Part shown: positions 4,559 to 47,842 of the stretch, one piece after another
Layout: every line of letters begins with the position of its first letter
Position numbering within the stretch: position 1 is the first letter of the stretch
From: Promethearchaeota archaeon
GTDB taxonomy: Archaea > Asgardarchaeota > Lokiarchaeia > Sigyniarchaeales > SOKP01
Assembly: GCA_030606485.1 (NCBI GenBank)
Contig: JAUWGH010000002.1
Location: 134,192 to 198,191 of the forward strand
Reading direction: 5' to 3'
Length of the DNA: 64,000 nt
Program-made: the position numbers and the translations under genes
The notes under the pieces: model-generated
Database searches by the model: none
Seen by the model: the letters and a program-made list of their open reading frames with translations, nothing else
Told to the model about the DNA's origin: nothing

Positions 4559-5239
4559 TTAAATAATATTATAAGATGTTATCCAAAAATAGGTTAAAAA
4601 TTCTACATTAAGATTTTTTATATTATCTCCAAGAATTGGAGCAAATTCATTTTTTTTAGGGAAATTTTTTACAATTTCATATTTTCTTCCATCTTCTAAA
4701 GCCCTTATTTGATATGTATTCCCTTCATTATCTATTCTTGATATAGGAGTACTACTATCTTTGGTATATAGGTTATCAATAAATATCACTAAGGCATCTG
4801 ATTGAAGTTTCGAGTGAAAAATATTAAGAAATGTTTTTAACTTAGATTTTAAAATATGCGACCACCAGAAACCACTAAAACCAGCAGAAAATTTCCCCTT
4901 AATTTTACTTAAATAAAATGAATCATCTTGAATAAAGGAAACATTATTTGAAAAAAAAACTTTTTTTTTAGCAATTTTAAGAACTTCTTGATTAATATCA
5001 GTTGCAGTAACTAAATTTGCAATTGATGCAATAGTTTTTGTCCAATAACCGGTTCCACAGGCAATTTCAAGAACATTATGTCCTTTAAGTAATTTTTTAA
5101 GAATAGAATGAAGTAAGGCTATATCTTCCTGTCGTTCAGGTCGTTGATAAGTTTTCTCATATTCAATCGCACGATCTGCATAATATTGAATGAGTTTCTT
5201 ATCTTGATTTTTTCTCACGAATCTTACCTTAAATGACAT
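4559..5239 (-). CDS. Class I SAM-dependent methyltransferase
   Basis: 226 aa with motif I VLEIACGTGYWT. Lies 3 nt downstream of the MttB-family gene. Confidence 0.8.
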   Translation of the reverse strand: MSFKVRFVRKNQDKKLIQYYADRAIEYEKTYQRPERQEDIALLHSILKKLLKGHNVLEIACGTGYWTKTIASIANLVTATDINQEVLKIAKKKVFFSNNVSFIQDDSFYLSKIKGKFSAGFSGFWWSHILKSKLKTFLNIFHSKLQSDALVIFIDNLYTKDSSTPISRIDNEGNTYQIRALEDGRKYEIVKNFPKKNEFAPILGDNIKNLNVEFLTYFWITSYNII

Positions 5240-5242
5240 AAT

Positions 5243-23470: not shown

Positions 23471-23569
23471 AATTTAACACCAATAACAATTTCGATATAA
23501 ATAAAATATATACTTTTAAATTTTTAAATAATCAAACTATAAATTAAAAAAAAACATTTGAGAGTAGAA

Positions 23570-31183: not shown

Positions 31184-33961
31184 ATGAGAAGTATTGTGAA
31201 AAGTAAGAAAGAAAAAATACATTTAAAAATTAAGATTGATAGACTTTTAGATGCATTTCTTTATAGAAAAGGCTGGAGAAAATCTTGGGATCGAAGATTT
31301 CGAAATTTATATTGGTATTATCGAACGCCTTTATTATTAAAATTTTTTGAAAAAATGTTTCATTCCAATCTAAATGAATTTAATCTTTACGCATTAGGAC
31401 AATCGCATCTTGATGCATGTTGGAAATGGACTAAACTTTCCTCTATTCGGCGTGCAATTTTAACTTTTGAAAGAGCAATAAAAAATTTAAAAAAATACCC
31501 ACACTTCATTTTCAGTCAAACTTCTCCTCAGTATTATGATTGGATAAAAAAATTTAAACCTAAATTATTTGACGAATTAAAAAAGTTAGTAGAACAAGGA
31601 AAATTTGAATTAATTGGTGGAATGTGGATTGAACCAGATGCTAATTTACCTTCTGGAGAATCTTTTGTACGACAAAGATTTTATGGACAATTATTTTACA
31701 TGGAAAATTTTGGAAAATTAAGTAAAATAGCCGCATTACCTGATAGTTTTGGATTTTCTGGAAATTTACCCCAAATTTTTACTAAATCGGGAGCCGAATA
31801 TTTTTGGACTACAAAAATAACTTGGAATGATTATAATAGATTTCCTTTTGCTAACTTTTTATGGCAAGGAGTTGATGGAAGCTCTATTTTTACTCATTGT
31901 TTTGTTTATAATGTTTCAGTTTTATGGCATCTTTCAAAATATAAAGAATTAGCTAGGCAGTCAAAAAAGTCAGGTTTAGTTTTCAATTCAACTATGAATT
32001 TAGAAGAAATTAAATCTCAACTTCAAGAGAATTACGTAAAAACATGTGGGATTTTTTATGGATTTGGAGATGGAGCAATGGGTCCTTTTGAAGAGGAAAT
32101 TACATTATATTCAGAGATTGGTAGATTGGGATTATTAAAATTTACAACAATTGAAAATTTTTTTAAGATTTTGAAGAAAGAATGCAATGAATTAATCCCT
32201 ATATGGAATGATGAGTTATATCTTGAAACTCATCGGGCATGCTATACAAGTCAATCAAATATTAAAAAACTAAATCGGTCAGCAGAAATTAATTTAAGAA
32301 ATTTTGAAATATTAAATACCTTTTTTACCCTACTTTCTAAAACATATGAATATCCAAGGAGAAAAATTGAAAATATATGGAAAACGGTTCTATTCAATCA
32401 ATTTCATGATATTTTACCAGGGTCAAGTATTCAAGATGTTTATTATGAGCAAGAACCAGAATTACATAATGTTATTCATGAAACAAAACATTCCTTGCAA
32501 ATGATAATTCAAATGATCTCATTTGCACTTGTTGGTGATAAATCAAAAATAAAGGATAATAAATATCTAATCTTTAACCCTTTAAGTTGGACAAGGGACG
32601 GGACAATTAAAATTGAAAATGAAGAAAAATATATTGAACATCAGGTAAAAAGGATCCCGGCATTATCTTTTAAAATAGTAGATATATCACTCTTAAAAAA
32701 TGAAATTCAGCAAAATGATGAGAGTTTAACTGCAATAGAAACTAAAAAACAAATTATTTTGGAAAATAAGAAAATCAAACTTACTATAGACAAAAATTCA
32801 GGAAAGATTTCATCATTAATTTCAAAAATATTCAAAAAAGAGTTCATACGCTTAGGAGATGGAATTGGTTTTCATGTTTTTCGCAATAAACCTCAAAAAA
32901 AATATTGTGTTTGGAATATCGATAAGATGTATTCACGTCATCCAATAAAACTCGGTAGAGTCAAAGGTCTAAGAGTAATAAAGGAAAACAATAGTAAAAT
33001 TATGGTTAAATTTATATTTTTATTTAAAAATTCCAAAATTATTCAATATATTATTTTGCGAACAGAAGCCGATTATATTGAATTTCGAACTGAGATGGAA
33101 ATATTTGATAAAAATATGCTTTTTAAAATTAAATTTCCATTTCACTTAAACACAAATGAATTAATTTGTGAAATTCCATATGGTGCATTGAAAAGAAAAA
33201 TCGTTCCAGAAACAGAATTTGAAAAAGCTAAATGGGAATTTCCCGCACAAAAATGGGTAGCTATTTCAGATCAAAATTACGGTATCGTATTAGCAAATGA
33301 TAGTAAATATGGATTCAATTCTACGAAAAAAGGTTTATACATGACTTTGTTAAATACACCTCATTACCCAACTGATCCATTCTTTTCTTATATTAAACGA
33401 GTTCCGAGAAAAGAAAGAGAGAAATACATTGATCAAGGACATCATATTATAAGTTATGCATTGAAAATTTTCGAAGGTGATTGGGTAAAGGCAGAAGTTT
33501 GGAAATTTGGATACGAATTTAATTACCCTCTATTATTTGAGAAGATTAAAAAAGACTTTGATAATCAACGCGTTATAGAAAAATGTTTAGATACAGAAAC
33601 TAAACGAGATATAATCAAATTTATTCAAAAAGAAAATTCATTAATTGAAATAAGTGAACCTAATATAATATTAGAGGTTATAAAACCTCATGAAACAATT
33701 CCAATGGGAAAATTTGGTCAAAAGATTTTTCAAAAAGATATCAAAGAAGGATTGATTTTAAGGTTATACGAGACCACAGGTAAAACAACAAGCTGCCATA
33801 TTAAATTCAATGATTTTTTTAAATTAAAAACAGTAATTGAAACAGATTTACTTGAACTTGATAAATTTAATAAAAATATTATTAAAATTTCAGATAATCG
33901 TGAATTTAATGTTAATTTTACTCCTTTTGAGATAAAAACACTTCAAATAAAATTATATTAA
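31184..33961 (+). CDS. Glycoside hydrolase family 38 alpha-mannosidase
   Basis: 925 aa with GQSHLDACWKW, GGMWIEPD and NQFHDILPGSSI signatures. Confidence 0.85.
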   Translation: MRSIVKSKKEKIHLKIKIDRLLDAFLYRKGWRKSWDRRFRNLYWYYRTPLLLKFFEKMFHSNLNEFNLYALGQSHLDACWKWTKLSSIRRAILTFERAIKNLKKYPHFIFSQTSPQYYDWIKKFKPKLFDELKKLVEQGKFELIGGMWIEPDANLPSGESFVRQRFYGQLFYMENFGKLSKIAALPDSFGFSGNLPQIFTKSGAEYFWTTKITWNDYNRFPFANFLWQGVDGSSIFTHCFVYNVSVLWHLSKYKELARQSKKSGLVFNSTMNLEEIKSQLQENYVKTCGIFYGFGDGAMGPFEEEITLYSEIGRLGLLKFTTIENFFKILKKECNELIPIWNDELYLETHRACYTSQSNIKKLNRSAEINLRNFEILNTFFTLLSKTYEYPRRKIENIWKTVLFNQFHDILPGSSIQDVYYEQEPELHNVIHETKHSLQMIIQMISFALVGDKSKIKDNKYLIFNPLSWTRDGTIKIENEEKYIEHQVKRIPALSFKIVDISLLKNEIQQNDESLTAIETKKQIILENKKIKLTIDKNSGKISSLISKIFKKEFIRLGDGIGFHVFRNKPQKKYCVWNIDKMYSRHPIKLGRVKGLRVIKENNSKIMVKFIFLFKNSKIIQYIILRTEADYIEFRTEMEIFDKNMLFKIKFPFHLNTNELICEIPYGALKRKIVPETEFEKAKWEFPAQKWVAISDQNYGIVLANDSKYGFNSTKKGLYMTLLNTPHYPTDPFFSYIKRVPRKEREKYIDQGHHIISYALKIFEGDWVKAEVWKFGYEFNYPLLFEKIKKDFDNQRVIEKCLDTETKRDIIKFIQKENSLIEISEPNIILEVIKPHETIPMGKFGQKIFQKDIKEGLILRLYETTGKTTSCHIKFNDFFKLKTVIETDLLELDKFNKNIIKISDNREFNVNFTPFEIKTLQIKLY

Positions 33962-33988
33962 GCATTTAAATTCAAATTAATTAATCTC

Positions 33989-34045
33989 TTAAATGGTCAA
34001 AATTTTATCTTTTTCTAAAGCATTTTAAATTTTTAGACCATTTAA
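33989..34045. repeat. 10-bp perfect inverted repeat (TTAAATGGTC / GACCATTTAA) with 37-nt spacer
   Basis: Arms at 33989-33998 and 34036-34045, just downstream of the mannosidase stop. Candidate terminator hairpin or palindromic operator. Confidence 0.35.
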
Positions 34046-34230
34046 TCTAAAATTAAAGATTCGATTAAATAAAGGAAAGGAATTGCTTATAGATTTTTAT
34101 TATTTCTCTCAATTTTCTTATAAATTAATTAATTTCTGGCTATATCTATTGGTTTATATTCCTTTTTTACTTATATTATGGAATATATTTAAGAAAATAC
34201 AAATTTCTTAAAAAGAATTTAAATAATATC

Positions 34231-34602
34231 TTGTTTTTTTTAAATTTAATGGCAAAATTCCGAGTTAAAATTAAAAGACCAATTAAAGGATTTCAGTTTG
34301 TTAAAAGACACAAGTTAATATCTATTATTATTGCCTATTTCATTATTGGGATAATTTATGTTGTAATGGGATTTCTACATAATATTATTATAGGAAAACA
34401 AGTGGTATTCTCACTTTTAATAAGTATTCCTTTAGCAGCACCATTTTGGCCAATAATGATTTATGCTGACTTTAAACACATAGGCATAATGTTTCAAGAT
34501 GTTATCACATTAATCTCCGTTATTTTATTTGTAATATTTTTTTACATTATTTTCCAATGGTCAAATGAAGAAAAGAAACAATTGAATCATAATAAGAATT
34601 GA
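34231..34602 (+). CDS. Small membrane protein (unknown)
   Basis: 123 aa, three predicted TM helices, TTG start. No family recognised. Confidence 0.4.
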   Translation: MFFLNLMAKFRVKIKRPIKGFQFVKRHKLISIIIAYFIIGIIYVVMGFLHNIIIGKQVVFSLLISIPLAAPFWPIMIYADFKHIGIMFQDVITLISVILFVIFFYIIFQWSNEEKKQLNHNKN

Positions 34603-34785
34603 AAGTAAGCGAGTTAATTCTCAAAGAATTTAAAGAGTATAATTATATTCCTTTCACCATATGATAAAACATTTATACTCAATGATTAATACTTCTTTTC
34701 GATAAATTAAGGGAATTGTTTTTAAATTTTCATTATTTCTCTTTAATCATAAATTTAAATAAAAATTACTTAAGGAGATAAAAAA

Positions 34786-37290
34786 ATGAGTAAAATTAAT
34801 GAAAAATTAGAAGTTCAAAAACAAGGACCAAAGTTTCCCGTCGCGGAATCTCATGATTTATCACCAAGATCAAAATGGCTTAGGGAATATTATTTTAAAG
34901 GAGTCAAAAGAGAATGGAACAATGAATATACACCTTTTACAACCGGTACTGATTGGGATATAATTTTTTATGAAGGAGATTTCTTTATTGTCCCTGAGAT
35001 GTATCTTTTTATGGGTATCAAAGATATGGGACCATTTGCTTTTTCTTTTAGATCTAAGGCATTTCCTGTTAAATTACCTGATAATTTCTGGAAAAAATCA
35101 TTACCAGAACGTAGAGCTTTATTTTTTGAAGAAATAATGTTAAATTACATGCCTCAAGAGATTATTTCAGAAAATGATTTAATAGCAGGAGGAAGATTTA
35201 ACACTCAATTAAGTAAATGCTTCAATGAAAAAGAAGCAAAAATATTTTGGAAACAAAATTTAAAAAATAGAAACGCTGTTTTTAAATTTCATAAAAATGG
35301 CTTTGGGAATTGTGGAGCCACGGGAGGGCATATTATTGCCGATTATGAAACCGTTGTCAATAAAGGATTTAAATACATTTATGAAATTATCAAAAAAAAT
35401 TATGAAAAATTAAGTGAAAAAGAAAAAAAAGGTCCAAAGGGTAAAGAACTTAGGGCAATGATGAAATCAGCTGAAATTCCAAGAAAATTGGCTAAAAAAT
35501 ATGCTGAGGAATGTAGAAGATTAAAAAATGAGGCATCAACTCCCGAACGTACTGAAGAACTTGAACAAATGGCAAAAAACTTAGAAATAGTTCCATGGGA
35601 ACCTGCTGAAACTTTCTGGCAGGGTATTCAATCTCTATGGCTTACACATATGTTGATAATGGCTGAGGAATCTTATCCCGGACCAGGAGTTTCTTTTGGA
35701 AGAACAGACCTACACTTATGGCCTTTATATAAAAAAGATGTGATTGATGAAAAAAGCATAACAAAAGATTTCGCTAAAGAGATTTTAGGGAGTTTTTGGT
35801 TTCATTGTAACACCGTATATGACGCTCAAATAAAGGTCGGAGGGAATCAAGGAATCAATTCTGGTTTCGGGCAGTTAATAACCTTATCTGGATGTGGAGC
35901 ACATGGAGAGGATTTATCAAATGAATTGACATATACAATATTAGAAGTTATAGATGAATGGAGCCCTATTTTGGAACCCAAACCAAATATTCGATTACAT
36001 CGAAATACTCCTGATAAATTACTTGATATTATTGTTGATATGATTACAAGCGCTCAAGGAGCTCCGTTTTTATTAAATTTCGATGAACGAAGTATTGCTG
36101 GAATGATTGTGGAAGGCATTCCTAAAGAGAAAGCATGGGATTATGCTTGTGTTGGTTGTCTAGAGAATACTATGCAAGGAAATGACCGCTCAGGCACAGT
36201 TAATTGCAATCCAAATTTAGCTAAAAGCATAGAATTAACTCTATGGAACGGAAAAAATATGCCTGATAAAAATGATACATCGAAATCAAAAGAACAATTT
36301 GGTCCAAAAACTGGAGATCCAGAAATTTTTGAGACATGGGAAGATTTTTGGAACACATGGGTTGAACAGATGAAATTTCTTATAAAATATACCGTTGATG
36401 TATATAATTTAGCGGAAGAACTCCGTGGAAAATATCTCCCAACGCCATATTTATCAACTATCGTCAGAGGATGTGCAGAAAAGGGATTGGACGTTAGACA
36501 AGGCGGTCCAGAATTGAGATTTATAACAATTGAAGGTGTTGGATATGCAACTACAGTAGATTCTTTATTAGCAATAAAGAAATATGTTTATGAAGACAAA
36601 AAATATACCATTGCTCTAGTTAAAAAGGCTTTAATGGAAGATTTTCAAGGCAAAGATAATGCTATAATGCAAACTTTATTTGTGAATAAAGCACCTAAAT
36701 TTGGGGTTGATAATGATGAGTTTGATGAATTAGGTCGAATGGTAATGAAAATTTGGTCCGATGAATGCTGGAAATATGAAACTCCAACTAATTTTCAATT
36801 CCGCGGCGGAATGCTTTCATGGAATTACTGGGCTGGGACGGATGCCGCAAATACTATCGCTACTCCAAACGGTAGGAATAAAGGAAGATTCTTATCAAAT
36901 GCGATTTGTCCTACAAATGGAGCGGATATAAAAGGTCCAACGGCGGTAACTAATTCGGTAGGAAAAGTTTTAGGTGGTAAGACTGAGGATGGAGAATATA
37001 AAAATTATTTACCTAATGGAGCAAGTCATATCATATCGTTTAATCCCAGTATCTTACGAGATCCTGAACATAAAAGTAAATTTAAAGCTTATTTACGAGG
37101 ATATATTGAAAATGGTGGTACAGCTTTGCAAATAAACATGATAGATGCTGAAATGTTAAAAGATGCACAAAAACATCCTCAGAATTACAAAAATTTGCTT
37201 GTAAGAGTCACAGGTTATAACGCCTACTTTCATGCGATTGGAAGGGAACTTCAAGATGAGATAATTGCTAGGGAGTCTCATCAAATGTAA
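34786..37290 (+). CDS. Glycyl radical enzyme of the PFL2/glycerol-dehydratase-like (1,2-eliminase) group, substrate unknown
   Basis: 834 aa. C-terminal glycyl-radical motif RVTGYNAYF. Cys loop ACVGCLEN (GCxE, as in the dehydratase/lyase GREs rather than the CC pair of PflB). Strong SD (AAGGAG) 8 nt upstream of the ATG. Confidence 0.9.
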   Translation: MSKINEKLEVQKQGPKFPVAESHDLSPRSKWLREYYFKGVKREWNNEYTPFTTGTDWDIIFYEGDFFIVPEMYLFMGIKDMGPFAFSFRSKAFPVKLPDNFWKKSLPERRALFFEEIMLNYMPQEIISENDLIAGGRFNTQLSKCFNEKEAKIFWKQNLKNRNAVFKFHKNGFGNCGATGGHIIADYETVVNKGFKYIYEIIKKNYEKLSEKEKKGPKGKELRAMMKSAEIPRKLAKKYAEECRRLKNEASTPERTEELEQMAKNLEIVPWEPAETFWQGIQSLWLTHMLIMAEESYPGPGVSFGRTDLHLWPLYKKDVIDEKSITKDFAKEILGSFWFHCNTVYDAQIKVGGNQGINSGFGQLITLSGCGAHGEDLSNELTYTILEVIDEWSPILEPKPNIRLHRNTPDKLLDIIVDMITSAQGAPFLLNFDERSIAGMIVEGIPKEKAWDYACVGCLENTMQGNDRSGTVNCNPNLAKSIELTLWNGKNMPDKNDTSKSKEQFGPKTGDPEIFETWEDFWNTWVEQMKFLIKYTVDVYNLAEELRGKYLPTPYLSTIVRGCAEKGLDVRQGGPELRFITIEGVGYATTVDSLLAIKKYVYEDKKYTIALVKKALMEDFQGKDNAIMQTLFVNKAPKFGVDNDEFDELGRMVMKIWSDECWKYETPTNFQFRGGMLSWNYWAGTDAANTIATPNGRNKGRFLSNAICPTNGADIKGPTAVTNSVGKVLGGKTEDGEYKNYLPNGASHIISFNPSILRDPEHKSKFKAYLRGYIENGGTALQINMIDAEMLKDAQKHPQNYKNLLVRVTGYNAYFHAIGRELQDEIIARESHQM

Positions 37291-37339
37291 AAACATATGG
37301 ATTTCGATAAATAAAATAAAAAAAGAGTTGAAAAATAAA

Positions 37340-38224
37340 ATGATTAAAAAAAAAGGATTAACAGAATGGTATCCGGAATTTTCCGAGGAAGCAATTACTT
37401 TTACAGAGCCAGAAGTTATGGTAAAATTAGTTTCAACGATTGATCCCCGTGGTTGGCCTCATATAACTCTTATTTCTAGTAATCGAGCAAAAAATAAAAA
37501 TCAGGTGGTTTGGGGTCAATTTGCTGAAGGATTAAGCAAGAAGTATGTCGAAAATAATCCAAAACAAGGAATATTTTGGATGACGGCAGAGATGCCATTT
37601 AAAATTCTTCAAGCAAAAGTAAAGCTGAATTTTACGAAAACAGAGGGAGAAGATATCGAATATTTTAATAAATTAGATCTTATGAGATATAATGCATATC
37701 TTAGTATTTGGAAAATTTTTTATAATGATGTTATAGCAGTATCTCCAATAAGGAAATTATCTTTGGGGGGAATTGTTAAAGGAATTATATTAGATATGAT
37801 TGGAAAAGGCGCAGCAAAAACAAAACTGTCTGAAAAACGTTTAAATGTTCTTGGGTATAAATTGTTTAAAGGTCCAATAAATCCTAAATTTATTTCTTAT
37901 ATTGACCCTTCCGATGGCTATCCGATTATTATTCCGTGTATTCAATTACAAGCTGCTGATCATAATCGGTTAATCTTTCCACTTACAGTTTTAAAAGAAG
38001 ATTTAAAGAAAATTCCACATAATTCCAAAATCGCTGTTTTTGGAATGAATACAGATTTAGTTAGTCAATTAGTTAATGGAACATTTCTAGGGTTTAAAAA
38101 ATTTAGGGGAATAAAGTTTGGCGTAGTTGAAATTGAAGAGATTTATAATAGTAGTCCCCCTTTAATAGGAAAAATATATCCGGAAATAGAAACACGACCC
38201 AAAGTTACAAATTTTCAATTATAA
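37340..38224 (+). CDS. Tandem split-beta-barrel (pyridoxamine-5'-phosphate-oxidase-like) protein
   Basis: About 294 aa from the ATG at 37340 (the track start at 37265 overlaps the GRE). Two similar halves each carry a ...IDPxxGxPxI... strand pattern (VSTIDPRGWPHITLIS; ISYIDPSDGYPIIIPC), as in PNPOx-like FMN-binding barrels. Confidence 0.45.
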   Translation: MIKKKGLTEWYPEFSEEAITFTEPEVMVKLVSTIDPRGWPHITLISSNRAKNKNQVVWGQFAEGLSKKYVENNPKQGIFWMTAEMPFKILQAKVKLNFTKTEGEDIEYFNKLDLMRYNAYLSIWKIFYNDVIAVSPIRKLSLGGIVKGIILDMIGKGAAKTKLSEKRLNVLGYKLFKGPINPKFISYIDPSDGYPIIIPCIQLQAADHNRLIFPLTVLKEDLKKIPHNSKIAVFGMNTDLVSQLVNGTFLGFKKFRGIKFGVVEIEEIYNSSPPLIGKIYPEIETRPKVTNFQL

Positions 38225-38492
38225 TTATCTTTTTTTTCTTATCTTTAGTTTCAATAAAAATATTAACATTTAGAATCTAATTTTTCATTTTTTTAAATAA
38301 TTAATTGAAGGAAATTGATTTTCTAAGAGGAATTAAAAAATTCAATATTAAGAGTTTTTGATTTATTATTGGTAAAATTTACTGAATTCTTATAGAAACA
38401 ATACCTATTTAAATATTAAGCGGTTTAAATATAAACTGTTTATTTAAGAAATATTAAAAAATTATAAAAGAAAAAATGAGGTAAAATTTAAA

Positions 38493-38855
38493 ATGTCAAG
38501 CAATCAACTCGAATTTTTTGCAAAAGTGAAGAAATTAGCAGAAGAAAATGAGGAATTAAAAGAAGAATTAGAGGATCTTGATGAAATTAGAGCTCAAAAC
38601 ATAATTACCGATGCAAATTTTAAATTTTGGATCAAACTTGGAGAAGGGAAGTTTGATTATGGCGAAGGAGAGATAGAAAATCCTTCATTTACAATGTCTT
38701 GTACTGCAGCTATTATGACGGGTATAGGAACGGGAGAGGTTGACGCTACTTCAGCTTATATGGCAGGAGACTTAGTTATAGAAGGAAATCTACAAGATGC
38801 AATAGCATATGGTGAAATTACTGGAGTCGCCAGAGATATTTTGGAAGAAGAATAA
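38493..38855 (+). CDS. SCP2 (sterol-carrier-protein-2)-like small protein
   Basis: 120 aa. An acidic N-terminal helix, then FKFWIKLGEG...TSAYMAGDLVIEGNLQDAIAY, matching the SCP2 C-terminal AFMxGKLKIxGNmxxAmKL pattern. Confidence 0.55.
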   Translation: MSSNQLEFFAKVKKLAEENEELKEELEDLDEIRAQNIITDANFKFWIKLGEGKFDYGEGEIENPSFTMSCTAAIMTGIGTGEVDATSAYMAGDLVIEGNLQDAIAYGEITGVARDILEEE

Positions 38856-38980
38856 GATAATCCCAAAAAATAAATGATTTATTCTAATTTTTTTTTTTAA
38901 CTCTTTTTAGAATAATAAAACAAACTTTATTTTTATAATATTTTTCATTATTTATCCATTATAAAACAATTTCTCTTAAA

Positions 38981-39967
38981 ATGGTAAATTTGATAAATTC
39001 TAAACATGGATTAATATTTGAAATTCAGAGAATGTCGACAGAGGATGGTCCGGGAATTAGGACAACAATATTTTTTAAAGGCTGCCCCTTAAAATGTGTA
39101 TGGTGTCATAATCCTGAAAGTATTTCAATGGATCCCCAACTTCAATGGTTTAAAAATAAATGTATTGGCTGTAATACATGTATTGAAACTTGTCAGCAAC
39201 AAGCCTTATCTTTTGATAAAGATGGATTAAAAATAGATCGAGATAAATGTATCTCGTGTGGAAATTGTGCCGATGAGTGTCCAAGTACTGCATTAAATAT
39301 GATTGGTAAAAAATGGGATCTATATGACTTATTTCATGAAATAGAGAAGGATAAAGTATATTATACTACATCCAAAGGAGGTATTACAGTTTCAGGAGGC
39401 GAGCCTACATTACAATCAAAATTTATAGAAGATTTTCTAAAGAAATGTAAAGAAAATAACATTAATACTGCCTTAGATACTTGTGGATATGCATCTAAGG
39501 AAATTTACCAAAAATTATTACCGTATGTAGATTTAGTCCTTTTTGATGTCAAAGAGATTAACCCCAGAAAACATAAGGAGTATACAGGCGTTTCTAATGA
39601 TAGAATTTTAGAAAATGCAATTTGGATTTTAAATTATATAGAAAAGCATAATAAAAAAATGTGGATAAGAACGCCTTTAATTCCGAATTTTACTACTACT
39701 GATGAAAATATCAAAGGAATAGGAAATTTCATTGTAAATGATTTAGGGAATAACATTGAACGTTGGGATCTTTTAGCCTTCAATTCTCTTTGCTCGGGAA
39801 AATATTCTAGATTGGGGATATCGTGGGTATTAAAGGATGAACCTTTATTAACTGATGAAAAAATGGAATATTTCTCTAAAATTGCTAAAGAAATCGGTGT
39901 TATTAATGTTCATTGGTCTGGATTAACTAGAAAAAGCGACTCAGAAGAATTAAAACCCAAAAAATAA
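38981..39967 (+). CDS. Glycyl-radical enzyme activating enzyme (radical SAM, with two auxiliary ferredoxin-type clusters)
   Basis: 328 aa. CPLKCVWCHNPE (CxxxCxxC), then CIGCNTCIETC and CISCGNCADECP, and the GGEP SAM-binding motif. Confidence 0.9.
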   Translation: MVNLINSKHGLIFEIQRMSTEDGPGIRTTIFFKGCPLKCVWCHNPESISMDPQLQWFKNKCIGCNTCIETCQQQALSFDKDGLKIDRDKCISCGNCADECPSTALNMIGKKWDLYDLFHEIEKDKVYYTTSKGGITVSGGEPTLQSKFIEDFLKKCKENNINTALDTCGYASKEIYQKLLPYVDLVLFDVKEINPRKHKEYTGVSNDRILENAIWILNYIEKHNKKMWIRTPLIPNFTTTDENIKGIGNFIVNDLGNNIERWDLLAFNSLCSGKYSRLGISWVLKDEPLLTDEKMEYFSKIAKEIGVINVHWSGLTRKSDSEELKPKK

Positions 39968-40166
39968 AAACATTATTTTCTGCTTTAATTGGATGTAAAT
40001 AGCTTTCTAACATTCATAATTTTTAATAGGAGGATTAGATAGATTGTTATACTCTAATTGTTTTTCTTCTTCTCCAATTTTTTATTTGAATATTAATAAA
40101 GATAGTATTCTTGTGAAATTATTTAATTTTAAACTTTATATGGATAATTGAAGATTCAAGAATCAG

Positions 40167-40802
40167 TTATGAATTGATTTTCTTTTTTAACTCAAAAAGA
40201 TTTTTTATGTTTAAATCAGCTATATGATTAATTTTTCCATTAGGATTAAAATAACAAGATTTAATATTAATTCTTCTTGCCGTTTGAATATCAATATCTC
40301 TATCACCAATCGAGAGTATATTTACTCTAGGAATTTTATATTTTTCAATCAGATAAAGAAATGATGTAGGATCCGGTTTTTTGGGAAGTTTATCCTCATT
40401 TGTTATTATATCATCAAAAAGATGTCTCATTTTGTAATAATTTAAAAGTTTAAATAACCCATTTTTCCCCCGATGAGACACAATAAAATTTTTTCCTCCT
40501 TTATTTTTAATGAATTTAAGGATTTCTATCGCACCAGAAAAAGGTGGTTCTTCACTTTCTTTAGTATTTGAATATTCACGAACAAATTCTTGTTGAAGTT
40601 TTTCTCTATCAATATTTAAATCTTTTGATATTTGATCAAAACAAAAATAAAGACTTACTTGACACAAATCTTTAATTTTATTAAAAATTAAATCTTTTTT
40701 ATAGATTCTCTTTATTAGTTTTACTATTATTGAGGCAATAGAGGGATATGTATTAAATAAAGTTCCATCAAAATCCCAAATAAGATATTCTATATTTTTC
40801 AT
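40167..40802 (-). CDS. HAD-superfamily phosphatase (phosphoglycolate phosphatase-like)
   Basis: 211 aa with motif I WDFDGTLFNT and motif IV GDRDIDI. Confidence 0.8.
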   Translation of the reverse strand: MKNIEYLIWDFDGTLFNTYPSIASIIVKLIKRIYKKDLIFNKIKDLCQVSLYFCFDQISKDLNIDREKLQQEFVREYSNTKESEEPPFSGAIEILKFIKNKGGKNFIVSHRGKNGLFKLLNYYKMRHLFDDIITNEDKLPKKPDPTSFLYLIEKYKIPRVNILSIGDRDIDIQTARRINIKSCYFNPNGKINHIADLNIKNLFELKKKINS

Positions 40803-40899: not shown

Positions 40900-42024
40900 G
40901 TGGATAAAATAATCATAATCCGATGGGATACCCAACTAGGACCTCAGCCGATAATACAATATCCACCAGCAAAGGAAATGCCCAAGAAAGATTTGTTTGT
41001 AAAAATTTGGGCAAAGTATGAATTACAAAAAGAAAAATCTATCATCATACTTACAACAGAAGATGTAGATAAAAAAGATAAAAATTATCTGACAGTTACT
41101 CAACAATATGAAGGAGAATTATATTTTTTTATTCTCGAGTTTGAGAGATTACAAAAAGACCAAAACTTTGAAGATTATTCAGAGATATTAGGGTCTATTA
41201 GCAAAAATCTTATTGAATTAATTCATTCTGATAAATTTATGAGAGCACTATCCGAAGGATATAATCAAATTAAGGATTTTGTTAAATTAGAAAAAGAACA
41301 AAACATAATTAATATATTTAAAGATAAAATAAAAACTCATATTTTAAAAGTTCTTGAAAAGGGAGTAATTTCAAAAGCTGAACTAATAAATAAATTAAAG
41401 GAAAATTATGGTTTTTCTGGAGAAAATATTGATTTATTATTATCTTCATTTTTAAAGGAAGGATTAATTCTTAAAAAAGACTTACCTGGAATTAAAGAAT
41501 GCATATTTCTGGTTAAAGACTTAATATGTATAAGAATTCCACCAAATCTTACGACTTTAAATCTAGGTCATAAGAAAATAGCCGGAAAAAAACTTAAAGC
41601 AAGTTTTAAGAGATTCTATAAAGATTATGTTAAAAAATTAGAAGTCTTTTTCACTAATTTTGATATTATAAGTGAAAATAAAGATAATACGTTATATGCA
41701 CTTTTCTTTAATGAAAACATTTATAATCTGATAAAATCACTAAGAGAAACAAATATTCCAGTTGAAAAAGCGTTAATGATTTTAGAAGATAAACAAGAAT
41801 TATTTGATGATCTTTTGGATAAAACGATTATTCTTGAAAGAAAAGGTATGATATATCTATTTTCTGATATAAGGTTTGTTAGCTTCCTTCCAATTTTTAT
41901 TCTTAAAAATCTCAAGAAGCGTTTTGATAATTTGGAAATCACATCAGGTCAATATGTTAATCATGTTGAAATTCTTCTTAACGAATTAAATAAAGAAAAA
42001 AAAGAAATTTATACTATTATATGA
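40900..42024 (+). CDS. Hypothetical protein: N-terminal alpha/beta (longin/roadblock-like?) module plus two winged-helix-like units
   Basis: 374 aa, GTG start. The N-terminal IIIRWDTQLGPQPIIQYP...ELYFFILEF looks like a small mixed alpha/beta domain. ILKVLEKGVISKAELINKL...FLKEGLILKK and a second similar unit look like wH folds. No family recognised with certainty. Confidence 0.35.
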   Translation: MDKIIIIRWDTQLGPQPIIQYPPAKEMPKKDLFVKIWAKYELQKEKSIIILTTEDVDKKDKNYLTVTQQYEGELYFFILEFERLQKDQNFEDYSEILGSISKNLIELIHSDKFMRALSEGYNQIKDFVKLEKEQNIINIFKDKIKTHILKVLEKGVISKAELINKLKENYGFSGENIDLLLSSFLKEGLILKKDLPGIKECIFLVKDLICIRIPPNLTTLNLGHKKIAGKKLKASFKRFYKDYVKKLEVFFTNFDIISENKDNTLYALFFNENIYNLIKSLRETNIPVEKALMILEDKQELFDDLLDKTIILERKGMIYLFSDIRFVSFLPIFILKNLKKRFDNLEITSGQYVNHVEILLNELNKEKKEIYTII

Positions 42025-42042: not shown

Positions 42043-42636
42043 TTATTGTGGTTTTGCTAATATCGCTTTTACTCGTAATGTATTAAACATGCTTGTGGGA
42101 GCAGGTCTAATTAAACAAACTGTATCTGCACCACGCCCTGTTCCTCCAATACAAACAATATCCTTATCTAAGTCTCTTATTAACCCAGCATCTACCGCCA
42201 TTGAGGCAATCTCCATGCAAACTTTTACACCTTGACTAAAGTTTTCACGTAGAAAATATGCCATCATTTCGACAAAACACCATTGATTCATTTTCATCCT
42301 TATATTTCGCTCTATTCCAGCCATAGCATGAGTTCCTGAAAAAATCTTTAAACCCTTTTTTCTTAATTCTTCCATTTTTAATTCATCAAATTCTTGAGGA
42401 ACTGATTTTCCACCTCTAACTACAAAATGATAAGTATGGGTTATTAAAACTAAATTATATTGAGTTGGATTAAAAATATCAAGAATTTTTTCCGCAGTTG
42501 TTCCGGTAGTACTTGCAAAAACTATATCCTTGATATTTAATAAATCAGCATTTTTTTTCGCAATTTCAAGAGCTTTCTCAGTGTTAGCTGGTCCAGGTTT
42601 TTCAAAAATTATTATTTCTATATTTAGATCCGGCAT
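42043..42636 (-). CDS. Stand-alone pyruvate-kinase C-terminal (alpha/beta) domain-like protein
   Basis: 197 aa. IVFASTTGTTAEK and CIGGTGRGADT patterns recall archaeal proteins annotated as pyruvate kinase alpha/beta domain proteins. Confidence 0.4.
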   Translation of the reverse strand: MPDLNIEIIIFEKPGPANTEKALEIAKKNADLLNIKDIVFASTTGTTAEKILDIFNPTQYNLVLITHTYHFVVRGGKSVPQEFDELKMEELRKKGLKIFSGTHAMAGIERNIRMKMNQWCFVEMMAYFLRENFSQGVKVCMEIASMAVDAGLIRDLDKDIVCIGGTGRGADTVCLIRPAPTSMFNTLRVKAILAKPQ

Positions 42637-42979: not shown

Positions 42980-45900
42980 TTAATAATGTTCGCCAATATC
43001 TTCTCCAAATTTTTTTAAATCAGAAAGTAATAGTTCTATTCGCTTCCTATTACTTAGCAGCAGCCTTATTTTATCGATTTCCTTTATATCCGGCATCCCA
43101 AGACCTAATCTCATCTGTTTAAATAACGTATTTGCCTGATTTATATAGGTTCTTGCTTGATTTAATAGTTTACCTTCTAAAGGTGTTATTGAAAGGCGTC
43201 TCTTTAATTTTGTAAAATTGTAAAACCATAAAATTCCACCCATTAAAATAATCATACAGATGGCAATTACATCAAAAATATGAGGATATCTAGGATTGGG
43301 ATATTCATATTCTTCATATGGTGGCTTGGGATCTTGAGATATAACATTAAATTTGAATGTTAATGTTTCCGCAGCTAATTCTGGATGATCTAAAATTAAA
43401 ACAAAATAATAATCACCTGTTTTGTCATACCAACTAGTATCAAAATAGACCATGAAGTTTCCTGGCTGTGTTTCAAACATCGGAAGTATCGGTATTTCGA
43501 ATCCCATTAATGAAACATTGATCATCGTCCCGTCTTTATATACAAACCCTGAAATGAAGAATAAATCGTCATCTAAATACTCTTTTGTCTCATTATAATT
43601 CAGTAAACTTGCGGTTAAATATAATTTATCCCCAGTTTTAACTGTATTATTTACAACGGATAGATTAAAGTTATAATATTTATTAAATGCCCATTTGCCA
43701 ATATTCAATGCGAATTTACTGTTATCATAGCTCTCAAGCCCAGAAATTCCAAACATATCTTTATCTCCTATAGCTATAACCCTCCCTTTACCATATGTTG
43801 CTAATGCAATATAATCACATAATACATTGACATTCTCGGAATTTGTATTTAATTTTTCAATATTAACCGGATCTTGTAATTTAATAGTCCCTACATTATC
43901 AAAAATGCCATATAAATTGGTACGATCATTAGCAGTGATATATTTATTTCCTATACTATATCCTGAAGTAGTAAGATTAAAATTTGATAAGATCTCATTA
44001 ATTGCAGTAATATTATTTTCTGTATTGTTTTCAATAAAGAAAACTAATGTGCCACCGCTTTGAACCCATTCTATAATATCTTCAGTTTCATTTGATGTAT
44101 AATATGTCTCTGGATCATTTAATATAAGTACATCGAAGAGTTGTATTATATCATGATTAATATTGTTTGTAGTTATGACCTCATTTTCCAGGTAATATGC
44201 ACCCAAAACGCTGCCCAATAAATTTTCCGTACCAGAAATATCTGTGGACATTGATGAAAGATCTAAAGTTGTTAAATTATATTCAATACCTGGCAATAGC
44301 GTCATAATTGTTGCTCCTTTAGGTTCCAAATTACTCCATAACTCACGCAATCCATAAAAATTTCCATAGGGGTGATCATATCTCTCATCCCATTCAAAAT
44401 TTATATCAGTTCCGCTCATATACAATGTTATATCATTATGAACTACATCAAAAAGCGCTCTTCCGCGGTAGTCTGATATTGTAAAGCTCACATTTAAATC
44501 ATAAAATTTTATATCCTTAGAGAAGAAAGAAATATTAAATGATATAGTTCCTGGTCTCGTAATTGGAGGTGCCATAACAAATAATGGAATGGAAAAATAT
44601 GGATCAACAAGACTATAATTTAAAGTTGTGTTAAATGTCATATCAACTGTAAATGCTGGGTCTGTTTGATCATCATCTTTGCCTACGAACCCTGTTAAAA
44701 GATCTGACAATCCTTCGCTAAAATTTAGGAGGATAAAATTACAAAATTGTTTCCCAAAATCGTCTATAGTAACACATAAATCCGGAATCTCAGTTAACGA
44801 GTAAATCGTAATATTATAAATGCCAAGATCTCCGGGAAACCATATTTTGAAGGGGATTTGATCAATTTTTTCAGGTGATATGAATAATGAATTCAAATTC
44901 CAATTTTGATATTGAATATAATCAATAATGTATATGTTTCGAACTAAATAATTGTTAAAAAGATTTTCATCAGTATTAGATGCGAAAAGTCCCATAGCTG
45001 GTTCAATTAAACTAATAATTAGTTCCAAACCTAATATCCAGCCACAAGTATAGACCCCTACGCTTGTTGGCGTCCAATTAGCGTTAAATTCTAAAATATC
45101 AAATGGTTTAAGGTTTTCTATGAGAAAAATAACAGAAAACACTTCTAAAACATCTTCTTCAGTCGTTTTATTAATAGCAAAGATGACTTCAGTAGAATTA
45201 ACTAAAGTAGTTCCAATATTCATTATTTTTACAGAGGATTCATATCTTTCATTAAGTTTCCCAATTCTAGAAAAATCAACTTCAAGTACAATTAAGTCAG
45301 TTACATTATTATAAATTGTAATATTTGAATTTATTCTTCTCATTTGATCAATCATTGCATCATAAGCAGAATTATTATCTGTACCAATGCCTGTTCCGAG
45401 TATTGATGTAAAATTTACTTGTTCATTTGGTTGAAAACTTTCCGCTAAATTCCAAATCATTGCAAATCCAGGATCTTCTAAACCTTGCTGATATGTAGAA
45501 ACATTCGCTAAATTATATGAACCATCTTCTAAAGTTAAATCTAATAATAAATTAGTGCTATCTCTAATTTCCCAAGAACTCAAATTATGTGAGGTTGAAT
45601 TAAATCCGATGGCTGTGAAATTAGAAGTATAATTATAAAATGTATTATTATTTTCATCATAAATATAAATCAATTCATCATTTTCATCATATTCACAAAT
45701 ATCATCAAGAGATGCGGTATTAGACTCCATATAATTTGTCATGTTTCCAGCAGTTTCATTTAAAAATAAATCAACTTTAAAAAATGAGACCAGTTGTAAG
45801 TTATTAATTTGGGAAAAACCTAAATTGAAAAAGTGCAAGGTAAATTGAAATGCGTTTATTCGATTGGTATAATTTTTAAAAACATAAGTATCCTCTTCAT

Positions 45901-47842
45901 ATTCTGCTGAATAATCCCAAGATTCAACGATAGCTACTATATAGAGTTCAATATCTTCAACTTTTAAAATGCTTAAATATCTTTTATATTTTTCATAACC
46001 GACAGGTTCTAGCGTTATTTGATGCATTTCTCGGATAACATTAAATTCCGAGAACCAATTGGTTCTAGAGTTATCATATCTTAATCCAAATTGATTTAAG
46101 AGTAGATGTATTGTAGTAAAATTAAAATCAGAACCATTATTTATCATCAATATTGGAAGCATTATTTGGGAACTTAAAAGAGCTGAAATATCATACACAT
46201 GCAAATCTGAAGGCCGATTAGGTGAGTTTGTTAAACTCATTGAATCTTGAGAATATATAACTCCAGGATAAATTAATGGAGCAGGTAAATTCAAGACATT
46301 ATATTGTTTTGCTGTAAAATAATCAAGTAAAAAGTTATAAGCTGCATATATATTGATTAATCCGGCACCTACAGTATTCTTATCATTAGAAACTTGAATA
46401 GTTGTACTTACCAAAGCATATCTTAATAATTCAGGTGTTGCTAGTGGAAATACTTCTAATAATAAGGCTATAGCACCACTTACTACAGCTGCTGCCGCAC
46501 CTGTACTACTAGCCATTGTATAATTTTCATTAATTGTAGTTCCATATTCTGGTTCTGGAAATGTCCCTTCAGGGATATAAAAATTTTCATACCCAAAATC
46601 ATCAAGTGTATAACCTAGGATTGAAAAGTTTTCTAAAGAGCCAGAAAATATTTTTGCTCTTGGACCAATTAGGTTTACACCAGGTGCGAGAATATCAGGA
46701 CACATTCTAAAGTCTAAGGAGGGACCTCTACTACTAAAGTCTGCAGCGTTTTGGTTAGAGTGATTGTATGCACCAACTGTGATTGATTTTAATGCCATTC
46801 CAGGAGTATCTAAACTCATATAACTACTCCCCTCATCTCCAGCAGGCGTAACTACAATAATACCTTTATCTACAATATTATTAATGGCTATTGATACAGG
46901 ATCATCATAAAAACCAGGAATACTAGCACAAAACAATAAAATATCTGCCCCATGTGCTAAAGACCACTCTATTCCTGAAATAATAAAAGACCAATAAGTA
47001 ATACCAATCGAATCATAAATTTTTACATTTAAATATGATGCGCCTGGAGCAACTCCCTTATATGAAGAGTTATATTTTCCTATTCCACAGGCGATTCCTG
47101 CATGAAAAGTACCTCGCCCATTAAAATCAGAGTAATATAATGGTTCTTCTGGGACTAGGGAAACAGAACCGACCACCTTGGTCTTTAGAGTGGTATTATC
47201 TTCAGATGGGAAACCTAAGTCGCCATCATATTGACCAGTAATATCAACTCCGGTATCCAATACAGAAATTATAATATTGGATCCATTATAACCTAAATCC
47301 CATAAATCCGTAGCGCCAATGATCTCTGTAAAATTGCAAAATGAGTCAGAACTCCCACTATTTGCTTGTTTTATATAATTTTCAATATCTTGAGTTAATT
47401 CAATTTTCCCGTTTTCCCAAATTGAAATTACATTTGGATAATCTGCAATTTTTTTAAAATCAGATATAAAACATTCCAATAATATACCATCAATTATTGT
47501 ATATTTCTTTTTAATTCCATATTGGATTTGATTTCCTTTTAAATATATTTCAAAATCAGTTAAAACCGAATTTTTGCCACTTGAATAATCAAATAGAATT
47601 ATTACTTCAATTTTTTTATCATCTTCCAAGTTATTTTCAATTACATGAAAATATAATTCTTTCAATTTATCACTCAATTTTTCTATTGGATTTTTGAGAA
47701 GAATTGAGTTGTCTTCCTCTGCAAAAGCACTCAAATTTGCTGATTTTGAAAGCATTAGATTTGAAAGTAAAAATATCCAAAAAATAAATAACGTAAATAG
47801 ATTTATTTTATATTTTTTTTTAATTGACTTCCATCTCCCCAT
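42980..47842 (-). CDS. 1620-aa type-I membrane protein: signal/TM, I9-like propeptide, S8 subtilase domain, long beta-rich N-glycosylation-sequon-rich region, GldG/IFT52 (GIFT)-like module, TM, 77-aa cytoplasmic tail
   Basis: S8 triad context SVLDTGVD (D196), GTFHAG (H247), MASSTGAAAAVVSG (S446). GIFT/ThuA-like pattern DVLILNDPETYYTSNETEDIIEWVQSGGTLVFF...GKGRVIAIGDKDMF. TM at aa 1521-1543 (nt 43214-43282). Start overlaps the upstream ABC ATPase gene by 23 nt. Confidence 0.8.
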   Translation of the reverse strand: MGRWKSIKKKYKINLFTLFIFWIFLLSNLMLSKSANLSAFAEEDNSILLKNPIEKLSDKLKELYFHVIENNLEDDKKIEVIILFDYSSGKNSVLTDFEIYLKGNQIQYGIKKKYTIIDGILLECFISDFKKIADYPNVISIWENGKIELTQDIENYIKQANSGSSDSFCNFTEIIGATDLWDLGYNGSNIIISVLDTGVDITGQYDGDLGFPSEDNTTLKTKVVGSVSLVPEEPLYYSDFNGRGTFHAGIACGIGKYNSSYKGVAPGASYLNVKIYDSIGITYWSFIISGIEWSLAHGADILLFCASIPGFYDDPVSIAINNIVDKGIIVVTPAGDEGSSYMSLDTPGMALKSITVGAYNHSNQNAADFSSRGPSLDFRMCPDILAPGVNLIGPRAKIFSGSLENFSILGYTLDDFGYENFYIPEGTFPEPEYGTTINENYTMASSTGAAAAVVSGAIALLLEVFPLATPELLRYALVSTTIQVSNDKNTVGAGLINIYAAYNFLLDYFTAKQYNVLNLPAPLIYPGVIYSQDSMSLTNSPNRPSDLHVYDISALLSSQIMLPILMINNGSDFNFTTIHLLLNQFGLRYDNSRTNWFSEFNVIREMHQITLEPVGYEKYKRYLSILKVEDIELYIVAIVESWDYSAEYEEDTYVFKNYTNRINAFQFTLHFFNLGFSQINNLQLVSFFKVDLFLNETAGNMTNYMESNTASLDDICEYDENDELIYIYDENNNTFYNYTSNFTAIGFNSTSHNLSSWEIRDSTNLLLDLTLEDGSYNLANVSTYQQGLEDPGFAMIWNLAESFQPNEQVNFTSILGTGIGTDNNSAYDAMIDQMRRINSNITIYNNVTDLIVLEVDFSRIGKLNERYESSVKIMNIGTTLVNSTEVIFAINKTTEEDVLEVFSVIFLIENLKPFDILEFNANWTPTSVGVYTCGWILGLELIISLIEPAMGLFASNTDENLFNNYLVRNIYIIDYIQYQNWNLNSLFISPEKIDQIPFKIWFPGDLGIYNITIYSLTEIPDLCVTIDDFGKQFCNFILLNFSEGLSDLLTGFVGKDDDQTDPAFTVDMTFNTTLNYSLVDPYFSIPLFVMAPPITRPGTISFNISFFSKDIKFYDLNVSFTISDYRGRALFDVVHNDITLYMSGTDINFEWDERYDHPYGNFYGLRELWSNLEPKGATIMTLLPGIEYNLTTLDLSSMSTDISGTENLLGSVLGAYYLENEVITTNNINHDIIQLFDVLILNDPETYYTSNETEDIIEWVQSGGTLVFFIENNTENNITAINEILSNFNLTTSGYSIGNKYITANDRTNLYGIFDNVGTIKLQDPVNIEKLNTNSENVNVLCDYIALATYGKGRVIAIGDKDMFGISGLESYDNSKFALNIGKWAFNKYYNFNLSVVNNTVKTGDKLYLTASLLNYNETKEYLDDDLFFISGFVYKDGTMINVSLMGFEIPILPMFETQPGNFMVYFDTSWYDKTGDYYFVLILDHPELAAETLTFKFNVISQDPKPPYEEYEYPNPRYPHIFDVIAICMIILMGGILWFYNFTKLKRRLSITPLEGKLLNQARTYINQANTLFKQMRLGLGMPDIKEIDKIRLLLSNRKRIELLLSDLKKFGEDIGEHY

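Follow-up and report, generated by a model that had tools for sequence, protein, structure and literature searches.

The locus described here raises the question of why the gene of a glycyl radical enzyme (GRE) in an archaeon is accompanied by the gene of a split-barrel protein. It is located in a 64,000-nt stretch of a Promethearchaeota archaeon (GenBank assembly GCA_030606485.1, contig JAUWGH010000002.1, positions 134,192 to 198,191), in the following termed the window, and comprises the genes of a GRE, a tandem split-barrel protein (open reading frame 2, ORF2), an SCP2-fold protein and a GRE-activating radical-SAM enzyme, the activase (Table 1). All four reading frames were found where the initial annotation had placed them, together with the motifs and the AAGGAG sequence that it had named. 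It had described the locus as a GRE with two accessory genes between enzyme and activase. We find that GRE, activase and ORF2 are a conserved, transferable cassette of Asgard archaea and several bacterial phyla, and that the cassette is best explained as a three-component glycyl-radical system.

The cassette of GRE, activase and ORF2

One genome per GTDB species was scanned with an ORF2 profile, and the flanks were analysed by tblastn and clustering of the open reading frames. The scan yielded 80 loci, all of them in Asgard archaea (Promethearchaeota and Promethearchaeia, Hodarchaeota, Hermodarchaeota, Thorarchaeota and Odinarchaeota). The GREs of these 80 species genomes were 69-90% identical to that of the window, whose family appears to be the common Asgard GRE. 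The activase gene was found directly upstream of ORF2 in 60 of 77 Asgard loci; the two genes are separated by a median of about 45 nt (mostly 40-55 nt). Among these 60 pairs, 35 were contiguous in the order GRE-activase-ORF2, 13 had the GRE elsewhere in the locus and 12 had no GRE in the locus, 8 of the latter with at least 6 kb of upstream sequence. ORF2 stayed with the activase although the GRE was elsewhere in 25 of the 60 pairs, including cases where the GRE was more than 10 kb away. The GRE was located directly before ORF2 in 7 Asgard loci, and ORF2 was next to a GRE without an adjoining activase in the window and in L075, L083, L085, L110, L111 and L128. The gene arrangement is not due to chance, as it recurs in other genomes, and its usual order is GRE-activase-ORF2. 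The order of the window, GRE-ORF2-SCP2-activase, was otherwise seen only in L001-L003 and in the metagenome locus L092, so that ORF2 has come to precede the activase by a local rearrangement.

The closest relatives of the window, which has a GC content of about 30%, are Asgard metagenome-assembled genomes labelled Promethearchaeia or Promethearchaeota. Their loci L001-L003 showed 87-97% protein identity to the window and an identical gene order. The SCP2 gene was present beside the module in only 4 of 171 loci (L001-L003 and L092), all with at least 89% GRE identity. It is a local, lineage-confined insertion and not a member of the module. The neighbourhood conservation expected for both intervening genes was therefore found for ORF2, which is kept with GRE and activase in both directions, and was not found for SCP2.

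More distant ORF2 relatives were searched among 1.84 billion cluster representatives. This gave 302 ORF2-family clusters, mostly of 270-300 aa, and no fusion of ORF2 to a GRE or an activase was observed among them. All seven distant relatives examined, down to 23% identity, adjoined a GRE and/or an activase. These were L081 on an Asgard contig of 65% GC, L083 from Helarchaeota with the GRE 4 nt upstream, L086, and the four loci L084, L085, L090 and L091 with bacterial-type neighbours. The distant GREs have 52-57% identity to that of the window, whose active-site motifs recur in them (GH[IL]IP, SYPG[PA]GxSFGR, GFGQL, VGCLENT[ML], GTV[DN], FRxG[MY]LSWNYW and RVTGYNAYF). Among bacteria, the trio was found in Desulfobacterota and in Firmicute-like and high-GC members. 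The source names given for relatives of the L084 GRE are Desulfobacteraceae and Desulfobacterales, Thermodesulfobacteriota, Smithella/Syntrophaceae, Myxococcales and Poribacteria; some are on multi-megabase contigs, three of which have the order GntR(FCD)-GRE-activase-ORF2. Overlaps of 1-11 nt between the activase and ORF2 genes are common in the bacterial loci.

A metagenome scan centred on the GRE, with the peptides [VI]TGYNAYF and VGCLENT[ML] and a hidden Markov model of the ORF2 family, gave 80 loci. An ORF2-family gene was present in 51 of the 56 GRE loci that had at least 2.3 kb of downstream sequence, and the five loci without it were low-GC and Asgard-like, a group in which activase and ORF2 can be detached from the GRE as a pair. 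Since the GRE-centred and the ORF2-centred scans agree, the association holds in both directions.

Horizontal acquisition had been considered because of the AAGGAG site and the rarity of GREs in archaea. A recent event is not indicated, given the distribution of the trio over the 80 Asgard genomes, the GRE identities among them and a GC content of the trio of 0.31-0.35 compared to 0.30 in the window. An older transfer between the domains is evident, as bacteria carry the same GRE family at about 55% identity. In L086 (positions 4167-6382, assembly GCA_000315315.2), the genes of an activase and an ORF2-like protein directly follow an 86-aa reading frame that contains only a glycyl-radical domain. 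This frame represents either a fragment of a GRE or a spare radical domain of the GrcA type.

The split-barrel protein and its possible role in activation

The ORF2 sequence of the window gave no match in Pfam, NCBIfam or the PDB, including PF01243 above its gathering score, and some homologues have only precomputed or faint PF01243 matches. An AlphaFold2 model calculated with 28 homologues (pLDDT 84, pTM 0.83) consists of two consecutive split barrels. When the PDB was searched with Foldseek, each barrel matched FMN (flavin mononucleotide)-binding/PNPOx-like proteins with a probability of 1.0. The model supports the tandem split-barrel fold proposed in the initial annotation. The matches included Swol_0183 (3in6), the D. 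vulgaris FMN-binding protein, HupZ and mycobacterial F420 reductases, on which each barrel superposes with target-normalised TM scores of 0.53-0.75 (single-domain matches) at 11-18% identity. These proteins are one-barrel homodimers, whereas ORF2 contains two diverged and fused barrels as a pseudo-dimer and has its family-conserved residues mostly in barrel 1. At the sequence level, the ORF2 profile reached HupZ with E=0.0016.

In 78 family members, down to 23% identity, barrel 1 keeps P40-H41, G64-x-S66-K67 and R116/N118/Y120, within the motifs GxSKK...NP (64-74) and RYNxY (116-120). The family-wide conserved positions of barrel 2 are mainly Gly and Pro, and no cysteine is conserved in the homologue alignment. 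The GxSKK..NP motif hints at a cofactor in barrel 1, which may be FMN, FAD (flavin adenine dinucleotide), F420 or heme. The C-terminal tail (273-294) with the segment YNxxPPxxGxIYP is conserved and is disordered or of low confidence in the model, which suggests a docking peptide.

The activase scored 336 bits with TIGR02494 (cut-off 174). It contains the radical-SAM motif CxxxCxxC (C35/C39/C42) and a ferredoxin-like insert with two CxxCxxCxxxC motifs (C61/C64/C67/C71 and C90/C93/C96/C100), and is a PflC/YbiY-type activase with two auxiliary-cluster motifs, as annotated. All motif cysteines are invariant in an alignment of 15 sequences from joined activase-ORF2 pairs.

We tentatively favour that ORF2 acts at the activation step as a flavin-type electron donor or mediator, like flavodoxin in function but not in fold. 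ORF2 would bind a flavin-type cofactor in its first barrel, dock to the activase and the GRE, and supply or relay the electron needed by the activase clusters. The working analogy is E. coli flavodoxin, the flavin-containing reductant of the PFL activase, from which the electron for the reductive cleavage of S-adenosylmethionine comes (PMC13450708). Flavodoxin differs in its fold and serves as a general carrier in the cell, encoded apart from the GRE; electron transfer by ORF2 is putative. The proposal is based on the gene contexts: ORF2 accompanies the activase where the GRE is not adjacent, accompanies the GRE where the activase is lacking, and is frequently coupled translationally to the activase gene. 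In addition, all three proteins come together at the activation step. The FMN-binding split-barrel fold and the family-wide conservation of S66-K67 and R116/N118/Y120 are consistent with a flavin-type function. A cassette that brings its own reductant could also work after a transfer between the domains.

Several points weigh against such a donor. Bacterial GREs of other families function with no donor of their own, and flavodoxin or ferredoxin is presumably available in the bacterial hosts. The strict specificity for one GRE family fits a chemistry-specific role of ORF2 at least as well. ORF2 also evolves much faster than the GRE, with 23% versus about 55% identity over the same span. It has no Pfam PNPOx match, and its nearest PDB sequence relative, HupZ, is a heme-binding protein and not a flavoprotein.

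The specificity would be explained if ORF2 were a second catalytic enzyme with flavin or deazaflavin, taking over an aldehyde, ketone or enol-type product of the GRE or preparing its substrate, and co-inherited because the product is toxic or unstable. The co-occurrence with one GRE family is strict in both directions, several loci hold GRE-ORF2 without an activase, the split-barrel superfamily is rich in FMN- and F420-dependent reductases, and the conserved R116, N118 and Y120 could form an active site. A second enzyme is the main rival to the donor role. We nevertheless regard it as somewhat less likely, since ORF2 most often follows the activase, often with translational coupling, and keeps this place even where more than 10 kb lie between it and the GRE. 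In addition, an enzyme acting on one fixed small molecule would be expected to keep more residues throughout the family, and features for binding NAD(P)H or F420 were not identified in ORF2.

A non-redox structural or regulatory subunit is less probable still. Such a subunit would gate the glycyl-radical domain or the formation of the thiyl radical (cf. BSS beta), or shield the radical from oxygen, the barrel being a scaffold. The conserved and disordered tail, the fast evolution with few invariant residues and the fact that HupZ-like split barrels need not bind flavin agree with this function. The activase, however, usually intervenes between GRE and ORF2, and stoichiometric GRE subunits are normally encoded directly after the large subunit; also, the phosphate-binding-type S-K motif is kept in barrel 1. 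The known small subunits modulate activation and thiyl-radical formation (PMC13450708; cf. the title of PMC12590467). HPAD gamma, BSS beta/gamma and MASS beta/gamma/delta resemble ORF2 as extra, family-specific polypeptides encoded with a GRE, and the roles proposed for them are activation, radical control and electron transfer (PMC13450708). They are small HiPIP-like [4Fe-4S] or rubredoxin-like proteins with cysteine-liganded iron and are encoded after the GRE, whereas ORF2 is a 294-aa protein without an invariant cysteine and is usually encoded after the activase. The accessory GRE subunits listed in a 2026 review are all HiPIP-like Fe-S or rubredoxin-like proteins (PMC13450708), and no relevant paper was returned by a full-text search on GREs in combination with split-barrel, PNPOx-like or flavin-reductase proteins. 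This agrees with the earlier statement that no characterised GRE system has a split-barrel partner.

The glycyl radical enzyme

The window GRE matched the Pfam families PF02901 (PFL-like, 395 bits) and PF01228 (Gly_radical, 80 bits), both above the cut-off. The motif RVTGYNAYF (807-815) with Gly810 and the motif GCLE (457-460) with Cys458 and Glu460 are invariant in 120 homologues, and Cys458-Leu-Glu460 is kept in the 120 Asgard as well as in 8 divergent or bacterial members. Further family motifs are GH[IL]I, SYPG[PA]GxSFGR (296-306), GFGQL (360-364), VGCLENTM (456-463), GTVN (470-473) and GMLSWNYW (675-682). The GRE superfamily has the fingerprint RVxG[FWY]x6-8[FL]x4Qx2[IV]x2R (PMC13450708), which was found as R807-V-T-G810-Y811...I818...Q823...I826...R829 with Ile at the [FL] position as the sole deviation. 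The catalytic Cys458 on the Cys loop and the cognate radical-SAM activase in the locus are also in line with the superfamily. All characterised PFL-like GREs are bacterial, and archaeal GREs are without an assigned function (PMC13450708).

Among GREs, a CXE motif marks the 1,2-eliminases and the newly defined isomerases (PMC13450708). The window GRE has this Cys-x-Glu on its Cys loop, as the initial annotation had it, which supports its placement in the eliminase/isomerase class. For the alignments, 1r8w, 6vxc, 9rco, 5ymr and 7kq3 were used as references. The best PDB sequence match was glycerol dehydratase with 301 bits. When the AlphaFold model was compared by Foldseek, the identity to all solved GREs was 19-26% and the C-O eliminases ranked first, the best structural matches (TM about 0.7) being glycerol dehydratase (1r8w) and 1,2-propanediol dehydratase (5i2a, 9rco-9rcr). 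The window GRE shares with these the Gly loop, the Cys-x-Glu, the general-acid histidine and an activase with two auxiliary clusters; His182, which aligns with His164 of glycerol dehydratase in pairwise alignments, is invariant in the alignment of the 120 homologues. Unlike them, it has a split-barrel partner, its identity to them is 22-24% in the structural alignment, and its N-terminal region of about 180 residues does not align.

Every NCBIfam GRE equivalog scored hundreds of bits below its cut-off, including PFL2-3 (TIGR01774) with 399 bits versus 678. The residues His281, Ser282, Tyr339, Asp447 and Tyr640 of glycerol dehydratase, which we take to be the glycerol-contacting positions, align with Pro/Ala300, Gly301, Gly362, Val472 and Leu677 of the window GRE. 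A 2-residue deletion and an invariant SWNYW loop also distinguish it from glycerol dehydratase. The low TIGR01774 score and the replacement of all five pocket positions set the enzyme apart from the glycerol and propanediol dehydratases. The isomerases YbiW and PflD (1,5-anhydroglucitol/-mannitol 6-phosphate) and HplG likewise have a CXE motif, and the bond that they break, C-O (ether) or C-N, is next to a carbon with a hydroxyl group (PMC13450708). With 199-248 bits to the window GRE they are comparable to, but no closer than, the eliminases, and no split-barrel partner is described for them.

By analogy to glycerol dehydratase and YbiW, the window GRE is proposed to work as a C-O-cleaving 1,2-eliminase or as a ring- or ether-opening isomerase. 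As in other GRE systems, S-adenosylmethionine would be cleaved by the activase and a radical placed on Gly810. The radical would then move to Cys458, which would take a hydrogen from the hydroxyl-bearing carbon of the substrate. In glycerol dehydratase, Glu435 deprotonates the C1-OH and His164 protonates the leaving C2-OH (PMC13450708). Likewise, Glu460 of the window GRE may deprotonate the substrate hydroxyl and His182 may protonate the neighbouring oxygen leaving group.

The aligned residues point to a pocket with smaller side chains and a more hydrophobic character than that of glycerol dehydratase. If so, the substrate is probably a diol or a glycerol-type molecule with a bulkier or apolar substituent. 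The structural model weakens this part of the proposal. Its pLDDT is below 50 at residues 297-301, 347-363, 456-472, 680-685 and 801-834, which are the active-site, Cys-loop and Gly-loop segments, and confident in the remainder. The shallow alignment of 16 sequences is probably the cause. Since the model is poor at these loops, the description of the pocket comes from the pairwise sequence alignment.

Two published labels concern Asgard GREs that may belong to the family of the window GRE. GREs of Hermod-, Loki-, Heimdall- and Thorarchaeota have been labelled alkyl- or benzylsuccinate synthases, based on 29-33% identity to AssA/BssA and a single Cys (Zhang et al. 2021, PMC8163825). A function of the locus in hydrocarbon activation would fit this assignment, the Hermodarchaeota family members that are 73% identical to the window GRE, and the relatives in Smithella and Desulfobacterales. 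It is very improbable for the window GRE, because Cys-x-Glu, the eliminase/isomerase hallmark (PMC13450708), and His182 are invariant, and because BSS (149 bits) and MASS (196 bits) are more distant than the dehydratases. The BssD equivalog gave 201 bits versus a cut-off of 496, and no reading frame for a Cys-rich small beta or gamma subunit was found within 33900-40400. The enzyme was on these grounds not assigned to the X-succinate synthases (Ass/Bss/Mas).

A pyruvate or 2-oxoacid formate-lyase, as suggested by the database names 'pyruvate formate lyase family protein' and 'formate C-acetyltransferase' and by the 2-oxoacid-formate lyases invoked in strain MK-D1 (Imachi et al. 2020, PMC7015854), is hardly credible, since the adjacent Cys-Cys pair found only in PFL and TdcE (PMC13450708) is missing from the Cys loop, which has Gly457-Cys458, and the scores were 87 bits with TIGR01255 (cut-off 994) and 52 bits with the PFL in the PDB.

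Locus layout, gene neighbourhoods and substrate

The features of the locus are collected in Table 1. The ATG of ORF2 at 37340 is exactly 49 nt past the GRE stop, as annotated. The TTG codon at 37265, chosen as start by the ORF lister, is disregarded as an artefact, as nearly all listed ORF2 homologues have about 294 aa. An AT-rich upstream region precedes both the SCP2 gene and the activase gene, and T runs of 8 and 11 nt follow ORF2 and SCP2, respectively. Termination at oligo-T is established in archaea. These features together suggest three transcription units, GRE-ORF2, SCP2 and activase. The SCP2 gene, bracketed by the T runs, appears from its sequence context to have its own promoter and terminator, and the description of the locus as a GRE with two accessory genes had to be given up for SCP2. 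A scan for sigma-70 promoters and terminators gave the same counts as shuffled sequence; the sigma-70 model is not applicable to archaea. In the closest relative, about 1 kb with two extra small reading frames is located between ORF2 and SCP2 (L001:10873-11892), so that this intergenic spot is variable. The SCP2 protein itself matched Pfam SCP2 with 43.4 bits (cut-off 21.3, E=4.7e-11), and its nearest solved structure is AF_1534 (3cnu), another being 3bn8.

Table 1. Features of the GRE locus in the window
Feature	Position	Strand	Basis or remark
Shine-Dalgarno-like AAGGAG	34772..34777	+	8 nt before the GRE ATG; read from the sequence
GRE, 834 aa	34786..37290	+	Pfam PFL-like and Gly_radical; family motifs
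ORF2, tandem split-barrel protein (PNPOx/FMN-binding-like), 294 aa	37340..38224	+	AlphaFold2 model, Foldseek, HupZ profile match, alignments, co-occurrence
T8 run, 6 nt past the ORF2 stop	38230..38237	+	Probable archaeal oligo-T terminator ending the GRE-ORF2 transcript, from the sequence
SCP2-fold protein, 120 aa	38493..38855	+	Pfam SCP2; lineage-specific neighbour outside the conserved module
T11 run, 3' of the SCP2 stop	38888..38898	+	Probable terminator between the SCP2 and activase genes, from the sequence
GRE-activating radical-SAM enzyme, 328 aa	38981..39967	+	TIGR02494; Pfam Radical_SAM, Fer4, Fer4_12

Several other genes were observed near the module. A GH38 alpha-mannosidase is encoded in the window (31184-33961, +) and, independently, in L081 (9106-12270, -), the Asgard contig of 65% GC. 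The window further contains genes of a PfkB kinase, an MFS sugar-type transporter and a HAD hydrolase. A TPP (thiamine pyrophosphate)-dependent, acetolactate-synthase-like enzyme and an SDR/epimerase are near the module in the archaeal L081 and the bacterial L088; the TPP enzyme of the window (23558-25300, +) is about 10 kb upstream. Downstream, a 374-aa protein without a family match (40900-42024, +) and a 197-aa protein (42043-42636, -), which matches the pyruvate-kinase C-terminal domain just below the gathering score, travel together beside the module in L001-L003 and L015 and partly in L092. The window also encodes a 357-aa protein (27061-28134, +) with a Ras/Roc/Arf-family small-GTPase domain at 183-339 and no assigned domain in its N-terminal region of about 180 aa. 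A 1620-aa protein (42980-47842, -) has an N-terminal S8 subtilase domain, a DUF4350 match below the gathering score and long regions without an assigned domain.

Two main types of flanks were found in Asgard archaea, neither of them in the window or in bacteria. In L023, L038, L049, L050, L059 and about 25 other loci, the trio is inside a tetrahydromethanopterin-biosynthesis cluster. Upstream on the opposite strand are a DHPS-like/PterinBD gene and DUF1464; downstream of ORF2 follow DUF447 (same strand, 28 loci), MptD-type DHNA, beta-RFA-P synthase, AIRS-like and LarE-like genes. A functional link to tetrahydromethanopterin biosynthesis was rejected, as these genes are missing from other Asgard contexts and all bacterial members. 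The second type is a run of sulfatase, NMO-like and H+-pyrophosphatase genes. In about 30 Asgard loci (e.g. L028:5832-7364, +, and L055:9396-10286, +), a sulfatase of the cytoplasmic Cys type (510 aa, CMPNR motif), in some of them accompanied by an NMO/FabK-like FMN protein, is encoded directly 3' of ORF2 (21 loci) or directly 5' of the GRE (9 loci). This pair, though suggestive, was left out of the substrate assignment because it is absent from the window and the bacterial loci. Other recurrent Asgard neighbours (thioredoxin-reductase-like, XerC/D-like integrase, molybdopterin oxidoreductase, amidohydrolase, FeoB and thiolase genes) were uninformative.

The bacterial context was analysed in 63 bacterial-type loci. 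The sole frequent neighbour was an FCD-type GntR regulator, present in 21 of them. Its typing was not diagnostic, as the scores for FadR, NanR, PdhR, LldR and GlcC were similar and all below the cut-off. Glycerol kinase was encoded in 6 of the 63 loci (786 bits, cut-off 498), long-chain acyl-CoA-ligase-like genes were present in 7, and lysophospholipase/phospholipase-like alpha/beta hydrolases in 5 and 4 loci. In the Firmicute-like L090, a PocR-type regulator adjoins GlpK. These lipid and glycerol neighbours correspond to perhaps six independent contexts. In L126, L129, L121, L124, L090 and L089, genes for glycerol kinase, lysophospholipase-like hydrolases, an ABC ATPase and long-chain acyl-CoA ligase-like proteins recur.

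The initial idea of a hydrophobic substrate cannot be based on SCP2, because this gene is confined to one lineage. The apolar substitutions in the active site and the lipid-related bacterial neighbours lend it weak independent support, and together they weakly motivate a glycerol-derived or lipid-derived substrate. A more specific proposal, which we consider doubtful, is a new three-component GRE class in which a flavin-binding ORF2 is obligate as electron donor, mediator or co-catalyst, and the GRE cleaves C-O bonds of glycerol-derived lipids, e.g. alkylglyceryl ethers. It would be motivated by the eliminase/isomerase-type triad, by the exchange of the polar glycerol-binding positions for small or apolar residues, and by the bacterial cassettes near glycerol kinase, lysophospholipase-like hydrolases, long-chain acyl-CoA ligases and FadR-like regulators.

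If the partnership holds, ORF2 would extend the accessory components of GREs, for the first time, beyond Fe-S and rubredoxin-like proteins. As a physiological reductant or mediator, ORF2 would address the bottleneck in the reconstitution of active GREs (PMC13450708). The cassette is compact, occurs in both domains and is found in multi-megabase bacterial assemblies, which makes it amenable to heterologous expression. Since the alkyl-/benzylsuccinate synthase and the formate-lyase labels fail the motif tests, metabolic reconstructions of Asgard archaea that involve hydrocarbon degradation or amino-acid fermentation need to be revisited. Cleavage of ether lipids, if true, would provide a route by which Asgard archaea, sulfate reducers and syntrophs degrade or remodel these lipids.

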